From: a virus
Length of the DNA: 36,345 bases
Direction: 5' to 3' (one strand)
UHGV virus genome: UHGV-0073579
Shown here in pieces: positions 27,509 to 32,455 of the stretch. Below the pieces are notes generated by a model that saw only the letters and a program-made list of their open reading frames with translations, was not told where the DNA came from and did no database searches. The translations under genes were made by a program, and so were the position numbers. Every line of letters starts with the position of its first letter. Positions within the stretch are counted from its first letter, which is position 1.

Positions 27509-28159
27509 ATGAAAACTCAATTGATGGGAGAGCGCATTCGCGCTCGGAGAAAAGAACTCAAGATCAGGCAGGCCGCACTTGGAAAGATGGTCGGCGTGTC
27601 TAATGTTGCCATATCTCAGTGGGAACGCTCTGAGACAGAGCCAAATGGAGAGAATCTTCTCGCCCTGGCTAATGCGTTGAAGTGTTCCCCTGACTATCTG
27701 ATGAAAGGAGAGGAAAGTCTTTCAAACATTGCCTATCACAGTAGGCATGATCCAAGAGGGTCATACCCTCTGATTAGCTGGGTGAGCGCAGGATGCTGGA
27801 TGGAAGCTGTAGAACCATATCATAAGCGTGCAATAGATAACTGGTACGATACAACCGTAGACTGTTCAGAAGATTCGTTTTGGTTGGACGTGAAGGGAGA
27901 CTCAATGACGGCTCCGGCCGGTCTCAGTATCCCTGAAGGAATGATAATACTCGTCGATCCTGAAGTAGAGCCGCGTAACGGGAAACTGGTAGTTGCAAAG
28001 CTCGAAGGAGAAAACGAGGCAACTTTCAAGAAGTTAGTTATTGATGCAGGCAGGAAGTTTCTAAAACCACTTAACCCACAATATCCGATGATCGAGATCA
28101 ACGGAAACTGCAAAATCATCGGCGTAGTTGTCGATGCAAAACTAGCAAACCTTCCATAA
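27509..28159 (+). CDS. c2: Prophage repressor, P22 C2-type (HTH plus S24 autoprotease domain)
   Basis: 216 aa; MKTQLMGERIRARRKELKIRQAALGKMVGVSNVAISQWERSETEPNGENLLAL... and C-terminal ...GDSMTAPAGLSIPEGMIILVDPEVEP... essentially P22 C2. Confidence 0.95.
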   Translation: MKTQLMGERIRARRKELKIRQAALGKMVGVSNVAISQWERSETEPNGENLLALANALKCSPDYLMKGEESLSNIAYHSRHDPRGSYPLISWVSAGCWMEAVEPYHKRAIDNWYDTTVDCSEDSFWLDVKGDSMTAPAGLSIPEGMIILVDPEVEPRNGKLVVAKLEGENEATFKKLVIDAGRKFLKPLNPQYPMIEINGNCKIIGVVVDAKLANLP

Positions 28160-28185
28160 GGGGGCATTCGCCCCTTTTTTTTATT
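28160..28185 (+). terminator. Rho-independent terminator after c2
   Basis: ggggc-attc-gcccc hairpin followed by T8. Confidence 0.55.
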
Positions 28186-28204
28186 TCCTTTAAAAATCAA
28201 AGCC

Positions 28205-28285
28205 AAACTTAAGTTACGGAAGAAAATTTAAGTTTTCTTCAAAAATACTCTTGACCATTAATTAAAGAGATCTTAAATTTAAGCC
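28205..28285 (+). promoter_or_regulatory. pL promoter with OL operators
   Basis: -35 TTGACC, 17-bp spacer, -10-like TAAATT; overlapping operator-like site attaaagagatcttaaat and a second upstream. Confidence 0.5.
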
Positions 28286-28324
28286 ATCAGCAGGACGCTG
28301 GAAGCCAAACGGAACAGATTGGCA

Positions 28325-28366
28325 GGCTCTTTAACATTGATGGGATTGTCCCGCCGAAATGCGGGA
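28325..28366 (+). promoter_or_regulatory. nutL (boxA plus boxB hairpin)
   Basis: ggctctttaaca followed by hairpin tcccgc-cgaaat-gcggga; boxB is the exact reverse complement of the element at 27193-27210. Confidence 0.6.
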
Positions 28367-28679
28367 ACCAAAGAGTAGTTGGCTTTGGGGTGACGTGAAG
28401 TGCAGCTGCACGACGGCAACCGGAAGATAAGCACCCGGCGCGTCACCGCCAAAGTCAATTCCATAGGCGTTATGCAGCCGCCACCATATTCAAGAAAGCT
28501 GCACAAGAGGTAGGAGGATTTATGTGAATGCATAACTTCAAAACCGAGGTTAATTAAATCTCTCGATCCGAGCATCGACCTATTAGGTGGCGAGATGCTC
28601 TTTCTGCCCCTCAGTTCGAGGGGCCAGAAACCACTTTGCAATCACTATCAATTCCAAAGTTGTTTCATCGGAGGTCAAC

Positions 28680-28979
28680 ATGACAGTAGTCATTACATAT
28701 CTGGCTGACGATAACGCCAGAAATCGCCGCAGAGCACGCAGACAGGCTCAACGTGAACAGGCAATGCAAGAGCAGCGACTGGCGCGAAAGATTGCGCTAA
28801 AGCTCTCTGGTTGCGTCAGAGCAGATAAAGCAGCATCACTCGGAAGCCTTCGCTGCAAGAAGGCAGAAGAAGTCGAGCGTAAACAGAATCGTATTTACTA
28901 CCGCAAGCCACGCAGTGAAATGGGTGTGACTTGTGTTGGTCGCCAGAAAATGAAATTAGGCAGCAAACCACTTATTTGA
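28680..28979 (+). CDS. N-like antiterminator with arginine-rich motif
   Basis: Start at internal ATG with GGAGG RBS; MTVVITYLADDNARNRRRARRQAQREQAMQEQRLARK; first gene after pL and nutL. Confidence 0.7.
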   Translation: MTVVITYLADDNARNRRRARRQAQREQAMQEQRLARKIALKLSGCVRADKAASLGSLRCKKAEEVERKQNRIYYRKPRSEMGVTCVGRQKMKLGSKPLI

Positions 28980-28990
28980 GAGGAATTAAT

Positions 28991-29614
28991 ATGTCATCAA
29001 TCCGCTTAACTACGAGAATGAAAGAGAAAATCGCTCGTAACGCTTTAATTAAGTCTGGGGTTTTCACTGAACTTGAAGAAGTAACAAAGTTAAAGAACCA
29101 GCTTGCACTTGACGCCAGAGTTATTGCGTTTGGCGGTAAAAAGAAAACTGAGGAAGTGGATCAGTTATCATCCAGGTTAGTAGCTATAAGTGAAGAACTT
29201 GAAAAGATGGGATGTTCATTTTACTCATACGATGTTCGTTCTACTTCAATTTATCTGACTGTATCTGGCAGAAGGGTTGGATGGCATTCATATGGGAAAG
29301 ACGGCAACGGCGAAGATATATTGCTCCCTACTCCAACCAAAGATAAATGCATGTTTGATGCAGAACACGAAATAACAAAAAGGTTTGATGAAATCTGCGC
29401 ATTGCAACAAAAACTTGAAGCCAAGAAAAAGGATATCGAATCAAATGTATGGGCTGCTTTGAACTCAGTCACAACAGTTAAGCGACTTATTGAAGTTTGG
29501 CCTGAAAGCAAAGAATTGCTACCAAAAGAAGCAGACAAAGCAAGTACAGCACTTCCTGCTTTACGGGTAGAAGATTTGAATAAGATGATTGGACTTCCTT
29601 CCGAGTCCGCATAG
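28991..29614 (+). CDS. Hypothetical 207-aa protein, first gene after N
   Basis: ATG at 28991 with GAGAGGAA RBS; no family recognised. Confidence 0.55.
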   Translation: MSSIRLTTRMKEKIARNALIKSGVFTELEEVTKLKNQLALDARVIAFGGKKKTEEVDQLSSRLVAISEELEKMGCSFYSYDVRSTSIYLTVSGRRVGWHSYGKDGNGEDILLPTPTKDKCMFDAEHEITKRFDEICALQQKLEAKKKDIESNVWAALNSVTTVKRLIEVWPESKELLPKEADKASTALPALRVEDLNKMIGLPSESA

Positions 29615-29838
29615 TCGGCCTTTATTTTTGGCACTAACAACAGAATAAACACTGCACTGTGTATTCATTCCAACGAGTGAATACACGGAGCAATGTCGCT
29701 CTTAACTAAACAGGAGCCGACTTGTTCTGATTATTGGAAATCTTCTTTGCCCTCCAGTGTGAGGGCTTTTTTATATGCATACCAATAACGCTTCACTCGA
29801 GGCGTTTTCGTTATGCAATCAAATATAAGGAGTTACCC

Positions 29839-29973
29839 ATGATGCACTTTCAGCTCGCGGGTAGCGGCGTCATGTCCGCTTTCTACCCGCACGAATCTGA
29901 ATTATCACGCCGAGTTAAACAATTAATCAGAGCAGCAAAGAAACAACTGGAGGCGTTATGCGCAATGAAATAG
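29839..29973 (+). CDS. cIII: CIII-like protease inhibitor
   Basis: Start at internal MM; MMHFQLAGSGVMSAFYPHESELSRRVKQLIRAAKKQL parallels lambda CIII MQYAIAGWPVAGCPSESLLERITRKLRDGWKRL. Confidence 0.6.
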   Translation: MMHFQLAGSGVMSAFYPHESELSRRVKQLIRAAKKQLEALCAMK

Positions 29974-30110
29974 CCATTAATCACCAGATGCTTCGTGCGG
30001 CACAAAACAAAGCAGTAATAGCCAGATTTATTGGTGATTCAAAAATGTGGCTTGAAGCAAATAAAGCGATGAAATCAGCTATCAACCTTCCGTGGTATCG
30101 CAGGAAATGA
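29958..30110 (+). CDS. kil: Kil-like small protein
   Basis: 50-aa ORF below the track cut-off; GGAGG RBS; ...AVIARFIGDSKMWLEANKAM... resembles lambda Kil ...ATFIGDEKMFREA... Confidence 0.45.
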   Translation: MRNEIAINHQMLRAAQNKAVIARFIGDSKMWLEANKAMKSAINLPWYRRK

Positions 30111-30185
30111 GTTTTACAGATAACTGGTCAGACGAAGAATTCATTCGTCAGATGAAAGATTTAATCGGTAACGAAGGAGATATTC

Positions 30186-30356
30186 ATGTCACTTGCAACC
30201 ACAGTGAAGGAGAGCAAGTTACAGAGACGCATGTACACGCAGAAAGCTCTCTGGTATCGCCATAATGGTGACCGCGAAGGAATGCGGGTATGCCTTAATT
30301 TGTCCAGAGTCGAAGTATTAAACCAGCGTTATTTCCTTGGGCCATGTCCATTCTGA
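30186..30356 (+). CDS. Small ORF (56 aa) immediately upstream of the recombinase
   Basis: ATG with GGAG 8 nt upstream; overlaps another 52-aa ORF (30107-30265) in a different frame; unclear which is expressed. Confidence 0.3.
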   Translation: MSLATTVKESKLQRRMYTQKALWYRHNGDREGMRVCLNLSRVEVLNQRYFLGPCPF

Positions 30357-30364
30357 GGTGAATT

Positions 30365-31072
30365 ATGGATTTGAATAAATTCGATGAGCCATTCAGCCCT
30401 GAAGATATCGAATGGCGAATACAGCAAAGCGGTAAAACACGCGATGGCAAAGTGTGGGCTATGGTGCTGGCTTATGTCACGAACCGGGCAATCATGAAAC
30501 GCCTGGACGATGTTTGCGGCAAAGCAGGATGGCGCAATGAATACCGCGATATTCCCAACAACGGAGGCGTTGAATGCGGCATATCAATCAGGATTGATTC
30601 CGAATGGGTAACCAAATGGGATGCTGCTGAAAACACGCAGGTAGAAGCCGTCAAAGGTGGTCGTTCCGGTGCAATGAAGCGCGCTGCCGTTCAGTGGGGA
30701 ATCGGTCGGTATCTGTATAACCTTGAGGAAGGTTTTGCACAAACATCTCTCGATAAAAAGCAGGGATGGCACAGGGCAAAACTCAAGGATGGAACAGGAT
30801 TTTACTGGCTCCCTCCATCGCTGCCGGGATGGGCAATCCCAGCATCAGATAACAAATCACCACCAGAAAATACCAACCAGAAATCTCCATCGGTTGACTG
30901 CGAACAAATCCTGAAAGACTTCAGCGATTATGCATCGAAAGAAACTGACAAGAAAAAACTCATCGAGCGTTATCAGCGTGACTGGCAATTAATGGCTGGC
31001 AATGAGGATGCGCAGGCTAAATGCGTTCAGGTAATGAACATCAGAGTTAACGAGCTAAAACAGGCGGCATAA
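30365..31072 (+). CDS. ssDNA-annealing recombinase: Rad52/Sak-like N-terminal domain with Erf-like C-terminal tail
   Basis: 235 aa; Rad52-type GIGRYLY motif; C-terminus ...YASKETDKKKLIERYQRDWQLMAGNEDAQAKCVQVMNIRVNELKQAA matches the recalled P22 Erf C-terminus. Confidence 0.75.
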   Translation: MDLNKFDEPFSPEDIEWRIQQSGKTRDGKVWAMVLAYVTNRAIMKRLDDVCGKAGWRNEYRDIPNNGGVECGISIRIDSEWVTKWDAAENTQVEAVKGGRSGAMKRAAVQWGIGRYLYNLEEGFAQTSLDKKQGWHRAKLKDGTGFYWLPPSLPGWAIPASDNKSPPENTNQKSPSVDCEQILKDFSDYASKETDKKKLIERYQRDWQLMAGNEDAQAKCVQVMNIRVNELKQAA

Positions 31073-31588
31073 ATGGCAAGCAGAGGCGTAAATAAGGTGA
31101 TCATTATTGGTCGCCTTGGGCATGATCCAGAAATCAGATATTCACCATCAGGAACGGCATTTGCAAACATTACAGTTGCTACGTCAGAACAATGGCGTGA
31201 TAAGCAAACTGGAGAGCAAAAGGAGCAGACGGAGTGGCACCGTGTGGTAATGAGCGGGAAACTGGCAGAAATTGCCAGCGAATATCTGCGAAAAGGCTCT
31301 GAGGTTTATCTTGAAGGCAAATTGCGGACAAGAAAATGGCAGGATCAAAGCGGACAGGATAGGTTCACTACCGAAGTCATCGTGGGCGTTGGTGGAACCA
31401 TGCAAATGCTTGGTGGAAAGCAAGGAGGCAATGAACAGTCTTCACCTCAGCGAAATAACGGTCAGCAACAAAGACAGCAATCTCAGCAGCAGGGGAATCA
31501 CAGCGAACCACCTATGGATTTTGACGACGATATACCCTTTGCACCAGTAACTCTCCCCTTCCCTCGTCACACTATTCACGCAATTTAA
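31073..31588 (+). CDS. ssb: Single-stranded DNA-binding protein
   Basis: 171 aa; OB-fold N-terminus, Gln/Gly-rich linker, acidic C-terminal tip DFDDDIPF. Confidence 0.9.
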
Positions 31589-31596
31589 GGACTTAC

Positions 31597-32145
31597 ATGA
31601 ATCACTTAATGGTTGACCTTGAAACAATGGGCAACGGACCATACGCGCCAGTTATTTCTATTGGGGCGGTGTTCTTTGACCCGAATACCGGAGAAACAGG
31701 AGAAGAGTTCTCGGTAAATATCTCGCTTGAGTCATCAATGCGATATCGGGCGCGTCCTGACGCTTCAACGATTTTATGGTGGATGGAACAGAGTGAAGAA
31801 GCCAGAAAATCGCTAACCAGCAACACTCAGGAGCTTTCAACGGCTCTTTCATGGTTATCTGAATTCATCATAAAGAACGCTAACCACAAATTCGTTCAGG
31901 TTTGGGGGAATGGAGCATCATTTGACTGCGTTATTCTCCGCAACAGTTATTCGCTGACAGGGCAGCCAGTTCCGTGGCAGTGGTGGAATGACCGCGACGT
32001 AAGAACAATCGTCGAGCTTGGAAAGGTAATAGGATTCGACCCTAAGCGAGATATGCCATTCAAAGGAACTCGCCACAACGCGCTTGATGATGCCATCCAC
32101 CAAGCCAAATACGTTTCAGCAATCTGGAAAAAATTAGCTAAATAA
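31597..32145 (+). CDS. DnaQ-like (DEDDh) 3'-5' exonuclease
   Basis: 182 aa; MVDLETMGN (Exo I), FDCVILRN, HNALDDAIHQA (Exo III) motifs. Confidence 0.75.
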   Translation: MNHLMVDLETMGNGPYAPVISIGAVFFDPNTGETGEEFSVNISLESSMRYRARPDASTILWWMEQSEEARKSLTSNTQELSTALSWLSEFIIKNANHKFVQVWGNGASFDCVILRNSYSLTGQPVPWQWWNDRDVRTIVELGKVIGFDPKRDMPFKGTRHNALDDAIHQAKYVSAIWKKLAK

Positions 32146-32161: not shown

Positions 32162-32455
32162 ATGCCAGCGCCTCTGTATGGTGCAGATGACCCACGCCGC
32201 TGTTCCGGCAATTCCGTATCGGAGGTGCTGGATAAATTCAGAAAAAACTACGATCGGATAATGTCGCTACCGCAGGAAACGAAAAAGGAAAAGGAATTTC
32301 GCCATTGTATATGGCTTGCAGAGAAAGAAGAACGCGAGCGAATTTACCAGACATCAATCCGACCATTCCGCAAAGCCACATATACCCACTTCCCTGAAAT
32401 TGACCCGCGCCTGCGTAATTACCGCTCACGCTATGGCGCTATCAGTAATGACTGA
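32162..32455 (+). CDS. Hypothetical protein
   Basis: 97-aa ORF in the early-left operon. Confidence 0.45.

Follow-up and report, generated by a model that had tools for sequence, protein, structure and literature searches.

The gap between cIII and the recombinase gene of a CUS-3/Sf6-like lambdoid phage probably holds three small genes: kil, a putative Arf-like peptide gene and a gene of the HkaM family

The question addressed here is what is encoded in the gap between the cIII gene and the recombinase gene of the virus genome UHGV-0073579, of which a stretch of 36,345 nt, referred to as the window, was analysed. The genome is that of a CUS-3/Sf6-like lambdoid phage (a lambda/P22-like phage of E. 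coli), in whose early-left (pL) operon the gap covers the stretch from kil to the recombinase gene. The first-pass annotation had filled it with three open reading frames of 50, 52 and 56 aa, of which the last two overlap in different frames, and this layout holds: the start of ORF50 (kil) overlaps the 3' end of cIII by 16 nt, the ATG of ORF52 overlaps the stop codon of kil as ATGA (30107-30110), and ORF56, which is read in the +1 frame with respect to ORF52, shares 80 nt with it (Table 1). The ribosome-binding sites described for ORF50 and ORF56 are also found, and ORF56 indeed ends just before the recombinase gene, with 8 nt between its last nucleotide and the recombinase ATG. We consider it probable, taking all parts of the explanation together, that the gap consists of three genuine and tightly packed small genes, kil, ORF52 and ORF56, which share one transcript. 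Protein-level constraint is apparent in the sequences of all three, while translation of ORF52 and ORF56 is suggested by their evolution and their ribosome-binding signals. A search for internal promoters returned one weak promoter-like match that was not above shuffled sequence, terminator-like hairpins were found only upstream of cIII, and an Rfam scan of 28000-32000 (E<=1) gave just one chance-level match, elsewhere. A conserved RNA structure was rejected for 30080-30215, where the fold seemed stable (z=-2.6) but the consensus energy in a four-sequence alignment reached only -3.4 kcal/mol.

Table 1. Features of the window from cIII to abc2, with the basis of each assignment
Feature	Position	Strand	Basis or remark
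cIII gene, 44 aa	29839..29973	+	Pfam cIII PF08134, 2e-30; same layout in HK97, Sf6 and mEp235
kil Shine-Dalgarno GGAGG	29949..29953	+	4 nt 5' of ATG; read from sequence
kil (ORF50), 50 aa, ATG start, net charge +7	29958..30110	+	Pfam Lambda_Kil, phrog_2055, BLASTP to lambda Kil
ORF52, 52 aa from ATG, net charge -9, putative acidic Arf-like peptide gene	30107..30265	+	phrog_2123; annotated as Sf6 gene 30
ORF52 conserved N-terminal 21 codons, MSFTDNWSDEEFIRQMKDLIG	30107..30169	+	frame-specific pN/pS
ORF56 Shine-Dalgarno AAGGAG	30174..30179	+	6 nt 5' of ATG, within ORF52 codons 23-25; read from sequence
Overlap of ORF52 tail (frame A) and ORF56 N-terminal helix (frame B), 80 nt	30186..30265	+	pN/pS per frame
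ORF56, 56 aa, net charge +6, HkaM-family predicted helical hairpin, end ...NQRYFLGPCPF	30186..30356	+	phrog_1723, HkaM BLASTP, AF2
Recombinase Shine-Dalgarno GAGGTG, overlapping ORF56 stop TGA (30354-30356)	30355..30360	+	read from sequence
Rad52-family single-strand annealing protein, 235 aa	30365..31072	+	Pfam Rad52_Rad22 7.2e-26; phrog_1097 4.7e-129
Phage SSB, 171 aa, 15 residues beyond DDDIPF motif	31073..31588	+	Pfam SSB 2e-38
Rv2179c-like 3'-5' exonuclease, 182 aa, recombination module	31597..32145	+	PF16473, 2.8e-73
abc2, the phage's actual anti-RecBCD gene, downstream of recombinase	32162..32455	+	PF11043 Anti-RecBCD_p2, 2.6e-63, full length

The presence of these genes is an ordinary finding, as all three have been known since they were annotated in HK97 and Sf6 in 2000-2003. 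Sf6 genes 31, 30 and 29 and HK97 kil, gp42.1 and gp42 are the counterparts of the three small genes of the window; the small ORFs are annotated as well in HK022, mEp235 and CUS-3, and a PHROG family exists for each. The ORF52/ORF56 module is found in 1111 of 5426 complete E. coli genomes (~20%), where RefSeq annotation often presents it as empty intergenic DNA and PGAP often omits ORF52. A literature search for functional data on gp42, gp42.1, Sf6 gp29/gp30 and HkaM found no assigned function.

The first of the three genes, previously described as Kil-like on the basis of an FIGD.KM..EA motif, is by sequence a member of the Lambda_Kil family. The motif is present in ORF50 and aligned with that of lambda Kil, the protein matches the Pfam model Lambda_Kil (PF06301; cut-off 27.6 bits) over profile positions 1-31 of 31 with a score of 72.6 bits (E=1.7e-20) and phrog_2055 at 1.2e-35, and BLASTP to lambda Kil itself gives 17/30 identical residues (57%; E=3e-9). 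As in lambda, HK97 and Sf6, kil of the window directly follows and overlaps cIII, whereas it differs from lambda Kil in length (50 aa vs. 47 aa) and at both the N- and C-terminal ends. Lambda Kil is a ZipA-dependent inhibitor of FtsZ assembly, and family membership suggests that kil of the window may likewise block host cell division.

At the other end of the gap, ORF56 clearly evolves as a real gene. In the comparison of the window with mEp235, the unique part of ORF56 has a pS of 0.61 and a pN of 0.15, and in that with the Enterobacter phage L092, ORF56 has a pS of 0.99 and a pN of 0.17. The pN/pS of 0.13-0.28 (0.13 in the unique part vs. mEp235) is confined to its own frame, the other frames being at ~0.9-3. 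Membership in the first set of loci required a 100% identical ORF56 protein; the all-synonymous ORF56 pattern of that set is therefore circular and was left out of the evidence. The Shine-Dalgarno sequence of ORF56 is kept in L092 as GAAGGAG. AF2 predicts a helical hairpin with a pLDDT of 91.9, in which the helices comprise residues 7-27 and 30-51 and the mean pLDDT falls from 93-98 in the helices to ~71 in the last 6 residues. Neither Foldseek against the PDB (best E 0.9, generic hairpins only) nor a PDB profile search with ORF56 (nothing below E=0.5) returned an informative relative, and neither ORF52 nor ORF56 matches a Pfam, NCBIfam or PADLOC model. The protein matches phrog_1723 at 9.4e-36, and the label "recombinase" carried by that PHROG is unsupported, because a hairpin of this size (56 aa) is no recombinase.

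ORF56 is 100% identical to Sf6 gene 29, and HK97 gp42 is an identical copy too. More distantly, BLASTP finds HkaM of HK620 (NP_112046) with E=9e-10 and 33% identity, and intermediates between the two exist; by sequence, ORF56 is a member of the HK620 HkaM family, which corresponds to phrog_1723 and has no Pfam model. The family comprises 35 clusters and, among its more distant members, ~17 representatives; native lengths range from 54 to 65 aa, and its alignment retains 12 invariant columns down to 39% identity. When representative bacterial genomes were scanned, only 7 loci were recovered; it is thus a narrow family, restricted to phages of enterobacteria. HkaM was first annotated as "arf" by position and was called an orphan by Hutinet et al. 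(2018). It shares with ORF56 a similar size, the helical hairpin, a ..F-L-x-x-P-F end and the slot immediately 5' of an annealing-protein gene, but its tail is SELPF rather than the GPCPF of the window, and its next gene encodes Sak4 rather than a Rad52-type protein. In HK620, recombineering was as active with sak4 plus ssb as with the complete module, and hkaM is therefore dispensable for oligonucleotide recombineering (PMC5928155).

The position of the ORF56 homologues is nearly constant. In the loci examined they lie upstream of a single-strand-annealing gene, directly so in all but three, and the annealing genes that follow fall into three Pfam families: Rad52 (the window, L085 and L094), ERF (HK97, L086, L089, L109 and L113) and Sak4/AAA_24 (L087, L090, L092, L093, L101 and HK620). 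The most distant family member, P0094, occupies the same slot with one short called gene before ERF. The three exceptions are S9-5, with an HNH insertion between the ORF56 homologue and the annealing gene; L107, in which one 61-aa called gene precedes ERF; and a contig from a metagenome, where 49 nt separate the ORF56 homologue from an unclassified gene. The idea that ORF56 goes together with a phage SSB gene does not hold in general, as HK97-type ERF modules are without a canonical SSB gene adjacent.

At most of the junctions read in the divergent loci, the end of ORF56 (TTC followed by TGA or TAA) is separated from the next gene by 7-8 nt, with 12-16 nt in some Sak4-type loci. A stop codon that overlaps or abuts the Shine-Dalgarno sequence of the recombinase, at a spacing that recurs before three recombinase families, could mean that ORF56 is mainly a translational-coupling leader that hands ribosomes to the recombinase start, its peptide being secondary. 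We regard this as improbable: the strong conservation of amino acids, in both pN/pS and invariant columns, and a confidently predicted fold speak for the peptide, and the recombinase has a good Shine-Dalgarno sequence of its own in a start region with no special RNA structure (z=0.14).

The status of the middle gene, ORF52, is less simple. The ORF listed for it begins at an upstream GTG (30092), and its ATG is preceded by only AGGA, 1 nt away. Because this Shine-Dalgarno sequence is poorly placed, ORF52 would most likely be started by termination-reinitiation at the kil stop codon. The protein matches phrog_2123 over its full length (1e-41), is intact in ~90 of 99 loci and has divergent homologues in the Enterobacter phage L092 and the Pseudocitrobacter prophage L101. 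In three pairwise comparisons of sequences that are 68-75% identical at the DNA level, codons 1-21 have a pN/pS of 0.24-0.40 in frame and ~0.7-3 in either of the other frames (Fisher p = 0.0001, 0.001 and 0.06), and the replacements in the N-terminal part are conservative (D/E, I/V, S/T). Judged by these ratios, purifying selection in ORF52 is limited to the first ~21 codons. The frame-specific conservation that the first-pass annotation had proposed as a check is thus found for ORF56 and, in ORF52, for this N-terminal part only.

Beyond these codons nothing comparable is seen. Within the overlap, pN/pS exceeds 1 in frame A (ORF52) and is 0.28-0.38 in frame B (ORF56). Selection for a long ORF52 tail was rejected, since simulated synonymous recoding of ORF56 gives P=0.22-0.44 for the openness of frame A, and lineages without ORF52 have short as well as long open stretches in the frame of the ORF52 tail. 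Beyond ~21 residues, ORF52 is probably just the product of reading ORF56 in its -1 frame up to the first stop codon. The AF2 prediction for ORF52 has low confidence, with a pLDDT of 59 overall and the best score, a mean of ~73, in a helix predicted at residues 9-20.

Such an unconstrained tail, of a length within chance expectation, and a poorly predicted structure raise the alternative that ORF52 is non-functional, being either a fortuitous ORF or a kil-coupled upstream frame that tunes the initiation of ORF56, over whose Shine-Dalgarno sequence its reading frame runs. At least 8 lineages with ORF56 are also without ORF52, and among close haplotypes its unique part has 6 synonymous and 14 non-synonymous variants, while a nonsense allele and an IS truncation of ORF52 occur in near relatives; its frequent omission by PGAP points the same way. 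Against this stand the frame-specific ratios and conservative replacements in the first 21 codons, and the homologue in L101, where the block of homology begins at the ORF52 start codon though the upstream gene differs. In addition, the N-terminal 18 residues are reused in RecT-type modules, where they are kept as an ORF with another acidic tail. A non-functional ORF52 appears unlikely to us, and a gene with a functional head is the reading that we follow.

A further alternative is that ORF52 and ORF56 are a single 83-aa gene like HK97 gp42.1, which either a frameshift mutation has split here or programmed +1 frameshifting joins. Two extra bases fuse the frames into gp42.1 in HK97, and seven fused proteins of 81-82 aa are present in databases. 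The split arrangement, however, occurs in 86 of the loci scored and the fused one only in HK97 among them, and every fused form has a junction of its own and 1-4 member sequences, which is what private indels or sequencing errors would produce. ORF56 has a strong Shine-Dalgarno sequence and ATG of its own, and its homologues also stand alone at 56 aa without ORF52. The stop codon of ORF52 and its surroundings vary between lineages, and there is therefore no conserved slippery site. With fused forms so rare and no conserved shift site, both the single fused gene and the programmed frameshift were rejected, and we consider them hardly credible. Two separate genes, the upstream one ending inside the downstream one, remain the preferred arrangement.

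As to what ORF52 may be, the closest known counterpart is Arf of P22 (PF17585, 47 aa). In P22 the gene order is c3-kil-arf-erf-abc1-abc2, so that arf has the slot of ORF52 after kil, overlapping the kil end, and before an annealing-protein gene. Both proteins are small and acidic (net charge -9 in ORF52 vs. -11 in Arf), and both carry an (F/W)SDEEFI motif at the N-terminus. The first ~21 residues of ORF52 would form an amphipathic helix with this Arf-like motif, and ORF52 may be an Arf-like acidic cofactor. In profile comparisons, the Phage_Arf model, which scores P22 Arf itself at 121 bits, matches neither ORF52 nor its L092 homologue at E<=10, ORF52 compared with phrog_2445 gives E=0.011, and hhalign of the ORF52 family with the Arf family gives a probability of only 9.8% (E=0.0033) over 19 columns at the SDEEFI motif. 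The two also differ in that the similarity ends at residue ~21, and in that arf abuts erf directly in P22, which is without an HkaM-like gene, whereas the tail of ORF52 overlaps another gene.

The same gene order bears on a suggestion of the first-pass annotation, which had likened the position of ORF56 to that of the RecBCD-modulating genes abc1 and abc2 of P22. That analogy fails: the slot before the recombinase gene is that of arf in P22 and of gam in lambda, abc1 and abc2 come after erf, and the abc2 gene of the window lies 1.8 kb downstream. ORF56 or ORF52 could still be a small RecBCD modulator comparable to Abc1/Abc2, given that lambda gam, a RecBCD inhibitor gene, sits between kil and bet and that ORF52 and ORF56 are, like the genes for Abc1/Abc2 and Gam, small members of the same operon and recombination module. 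Yet both precede the recombinase gene, comparisons with Pfam, PHROGs and NCBIfam link neither of them to Abc1, Abc2 or Gam, and the window, HK97 and HK620 each have, besides the ORF56/HkaM gene, a true abc2, which in HK97 and HK620 follows erf or sak4. A role in modulating RecBCD is thus very improbable. We infer that both proteins assist the phage recombination module as accessory factors, taking the functional slot of P22 arf rather than acting as RecBCD inhibitors.

The end of ORF56 offers a possible mechanism for such an accessory role. The C-terminal Pro-Phe (Pro55, Phe56) is invariant, and all the distant representatives of the family end in PF; the end of ORF56 fits the family pattern F-[LIM]-x(1-5)-P-F-COOH. 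The pair is kept across variation in the Pro codon (CCA/CCG/CCC), in the stop codon (TGA/TAA) and further downstream. For Phe only the codon TTC occurs, and selection on this residue is therefore inseparable from DNA-level conservation of the junction. The C-terminal tip of SSB (..D-D-D-I-P-F-COOH) is the docking peptide for SSB-interacting proteins and phage annealing proteins, and ORF56 and HkaM similarly present Pro-Phe-COOH on a tail that is predicted to be flexible. The likeness is closest in the HkaM subgroup, whose [DE]-[LM]-P-F end, as in SELPF (HkaM), DELPF (L094) and DEMPF, together with NDLPF, resembles the D-I-P-F of SSB (DDIPF/DEIPF). Unlike the SSB tip, the tail of the window (L-G-P-C-P-F) has no acidic residues, and in one family member, which ends in GKLPF, a Lys precedes L-P-F. 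Annealing proteins recognise the last 7 residues of SSB (bioRxiv 10.1101/2020.04.14.041095).

Based on this likeness, the mechanism that we tentatively prefer, while thinking it unlikely, is that the flexible Pro-Phe-COOH tail of ORF56 acts like the SSB tip. The tail would dock in the SSB-tail pocket of a partner that is common to all the annealing pathways, and the candidate partners are the annealing protein itself and a host SSB-interacting enzyme. A fuller version, in which ORF56 and HkaM would be SSB-tail mimics serving as a universal adaptor or decoy and ORF52 would act beside them as an acidic partner of the Arf type, with a tail that arose by read-through into the ORF56 gene (overprinting), seems improbable.

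Whatever the mechanism, ORF52 may serve as a clean small case of a selected functional head with a tail that free-rides on the alternative frame of a neighbouring gene. The HkaM-type gene, for its part, almost constantly accompanies phage annealing proteins of three families, and SSB-tail mimicry, if true, would explain how one tiny gene comes to precede three recombinase families. Settling the function of the HkaM-type proteins bears on the poor transfer of recombineering modules between hosts.

The three small ORFs that fill the interval between cIII and the recombinase gene are genuine genes, already annotated in other phages. Sf6 annotates all of them, as gene 31 (kil-like), gene 30 (52 aa) and gene 29 (56 aa), mEp235 as Kil and two hypothetical proteins, and HK97 as kil, gp42.1 and gp42; the 801-nt region matches 376 phage records. 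Each ORF has a full-length PHROGs family (phrog_2055 for ORF50, phrog_2123 for ORF52 and phrog_1723 for ORF56); the "recombinase" label of the latter two families is unsupported. Constraint is shown for all three coding sequences, as is the upstream position that ORF56 keeps relative to annealing-protein genes from three families. Of 5426 complete E. coli genomes, 1111 carry the 250-nt ORF52/ORF56 module (30107-30356); in some carriers no RefSeq/PGAP gene is called over it (RefSeq hits H99-H101), so that it appears intergenic there. Homology to the window ends at the ORF52 start codon (30107) and just past the ORF56 stop (30357) among 80 IMG/VR loci, which indicates that ORF52 and ORF56 move as one mosaic module among varied kil and recombinase neighbours.

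Taken as a whole, the window is P22-like and mosaic, with vB_EcoP-720R6, CUS-3 and Kapi1 as its closest phages, and has an early-left operon of lambdoid type on its + strand. In the ORF listing and the sequence, the three ORFs match their description in the first-pass annotation exactly. As read from the sequence, GGAGG precedes the ORF50 ATG by 4 nt and AAGGAG the ORF56 ATG by 6 nt, and the sole Shine-Dalgarno candidate of ORF52 is a poorly spaced AGGA. The ORF50 stop and the ORF52 ATG overlap as ATGA, and ORF56, read in the +1 frame with respect to ORF52, shares 80 nt with it. The recombinase gene has GAGGTG as its Shine-Dalgarno, which the ORF56 stop overlaps, and its ATG comes 8 nt after that stop. 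RNA across the kil/ORF52/ORF56 junctions (30080-30215) folds at -34.2 kcal/mol (z=-2.6 vs shuffled sequence), with no conservation of its structure across divergent relatives. The window SSB has 15 residues beyond the canonical tip, so its DDDIPF motif is internal rather than C-terminal. The SSB of mEp235 is similarly extended, those of Sf6 and of a Pseudocitrobacter prophage (L101) stop at ...IPF, and in both extended forms the Rv2179c-like exonuclease gene comes next after the SSB gene.

Features of the early-left operon in the window
Feature	Coordinates	Strand	Remarks
N-like gene		+	upstream of Nmad5 gene
Nmad5 gene	28991-29614	+	207 aa; PF18757, 3.7e-72; "nucleotide modification associated domain 5"; between N-like gene and cIII
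Terminator-like hairpins with T-runs	29749-29775, 29787-29815		just 5' of cIII; same place as putative terminator (tL2-type) annotated in HK97
cIII	29839-29973	+	
ORF50	29958-30110	+	50 aa
ORF52	30107-30265	+	52 aa
ORF56	30186-30356	+	56 aa
Rad52-family annealing-protein gene	30365-31072	+	
SSB gene	31073-31588	+	
Rv2179c-like exonuclease gene	31597-32145	+	
abc2	32162-32455	+	

The Kil call of the first-pass annotation was right: the score of ORF50 with the Pfam Lambda_Kil model is 72.6 bits (cut-off 27.6), and it shares 57% identity with lambda Kil across 30 residues that include FIGD.KM..EA. Kil is described as inhibiting FtsZ (Haeusser et al. 2014, as cited in PMC9836094), and membership in this family suggests that ORF50 would do the same.

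ORF56, a genuine gene, belongs to the HkaM family: it aligns with HkaM of HK620 at E=9e-10, and the two are linked by intermediates, the S.Kent 1-2-1 protein among them. The family is small, with native forms of 54-65 aa: 35 clusters were found among 5.8 billion proteins, and about 17 further small proteins came from a profile search of 1.84 billion representatives. Compared with mEp235 and Enterobacter phage vB_Ecl_MII_001, the non-overlapping part of ORF56 has pS of 0.61-0.99 and pN of 0.15-0.17 in its own frame and ratios of about 0.9-3 in the other two; within the overlap, pN/pS is 0.28-0.38 in the ORF56 frame and >1 in that of ORF52. Conservation of ORF56 is thus frame-specific. In the AlphaFold2 model, which is confident (pLDDT 91.9), two helices (7-27 and 30-51) form a hairpin, and the tail is looser.

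At all loci examined, a single-strand-annealing gene lies downstream of the ORF56 homologue. It is the next gene in all but three of them, and the gap measures 7-8 nt at most of the junctions read. Three Pfam families are represented among these annealing genes: Rad52_Rad22 (the window and comparison loci L085 and L094), ERF (HK97, L086, L089, L109 and L113) or AAA_24/Sak4 (L087, L090, L092, L093, L101 and HK620). The exceptions are Salmonella phage S9-5 (L091 1679-2149), with an HNH homing endonuclease gene before erf; P0094, the most distant member, with one called 61-aa gene before the ERF gene; and the short metagenomic contig L112, where the next gene, 49 nt on, is unclassified. In L052, an IMG/VR contig, the place of the ORF52 N-terminus is taken by a transposase-like frame whose end lies just upstream, and ORF56 is intact.

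Constraint on ORF52 is confined to its head. In codons 1-21, pN/pS is 0.24-0.40 in its own frame (Fisher p = 0.0001, 0.001 and 0.06) and about 0.7-3 in the others; inside the overlap no constraint is seen in the ORF52 frame, whose open length there shows no excess over expectation from synonymous recoding of ORF56. Frame-specific conservation accordingly holds for the first 21 codons and fails in the overlap. The unique part carries 6 synonymous vs 14 non-synonymous variants among close haplotypes, so the constraint is seen only at greater divergence. The family is narrow, with three divergent homologues: MSIADTWSEDAFVRLMQDLIGSEGG... in an Enterobacter phage (L092), SIADTWTDDAFIRLMKDLIS... with a GTG start in L101, and a RecT-module form in two E. 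coli prophages (L105 1501-1608 and L106), where the first 18 codons (MSFTDNWSDEEFIRQMKE) and a different acidic tail make a 35-aa ORF overlapping the start of the next gene, which encodes a 102-aa acidic protein upstream of RecT. AlphaFold2 confidence is low overall, with a single helix (9-20) as the top-scoring block (mean pLDDT about 73). Of 99 loci, about 90 have an intact ORF52; the gene bears a nonsense allele in one, is cut short by an IS in one, and is absent from at least eight lineages retaining ORF56.

The first-pass annotation had likened the position of ORF56 to that of P22 abc1/abc2. The P22 order is c3-kil-arf-erf-abc1-abc2, where these genes come after the recombinase, and the window has its own abc2; the analogy is wrong. 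ORF52 instead resembles P22 Arf (47 aa, net charge -11, starting MQHEFSDEEFI) in slot, acidity and the shared SDEEFI motif, whose Ser codons differ (AGT vs TCA), placing the likeness at the protein level without shared DNA. However, ORF52 does not match the Phage_Arf model, and profile-profile comparison gave a probability of 9.8%; we therefore call it Arf-like by position and character, not a family member.

HK97 (L001 2905-3156) has two extra bases relative to the window and HK106 (C and G, 7 nt apart) that merge ORF52 and ORF56 into the annotated 83-aa gp42.1; they may reflect a genuine mutation or a mistake in the sequence as first determined. Seven other fused proteins, of 1-4 member sequences apiece, each have a different junction, and the split form occurs in 86 of the loci scored, HK97 being the sole fused one. 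Because fused forms are rare and their junctions all differ, a conserved fusion or programmed frameshift was rejected; the fused forms are private indels or sequencing errors.

Pro-Phe forms the C-terminus of every ORF56 family member. Variation in the Pro codon, in the stop codon and in the sequence downstream argues that at least the Pro is under protein-level selection. Annealing proteins recognise the last 7 residues of SSB (bioRxiv 10.1101/2020.04.14.041095), and HkaM-type tails are SELPF or DELPF compared with DDIPF of SSB, whereas the window tail, GPCPF, lacks acidic residues; that the Pro-Phe-COOH tail mimics the SSB tip is a speculative and rather improbable reading. Hutinet et al. 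(PMC5928155) describe HkaM as an orphan of unknown function and show that, in recombineering, sak4 plus ssb are as active as the complete HK620 module, which makes hkaM dispensable there. We infer that kil and ORF52 are probably translationally coupled and that both ORF52 and ORF56 probably serve the recombination module.
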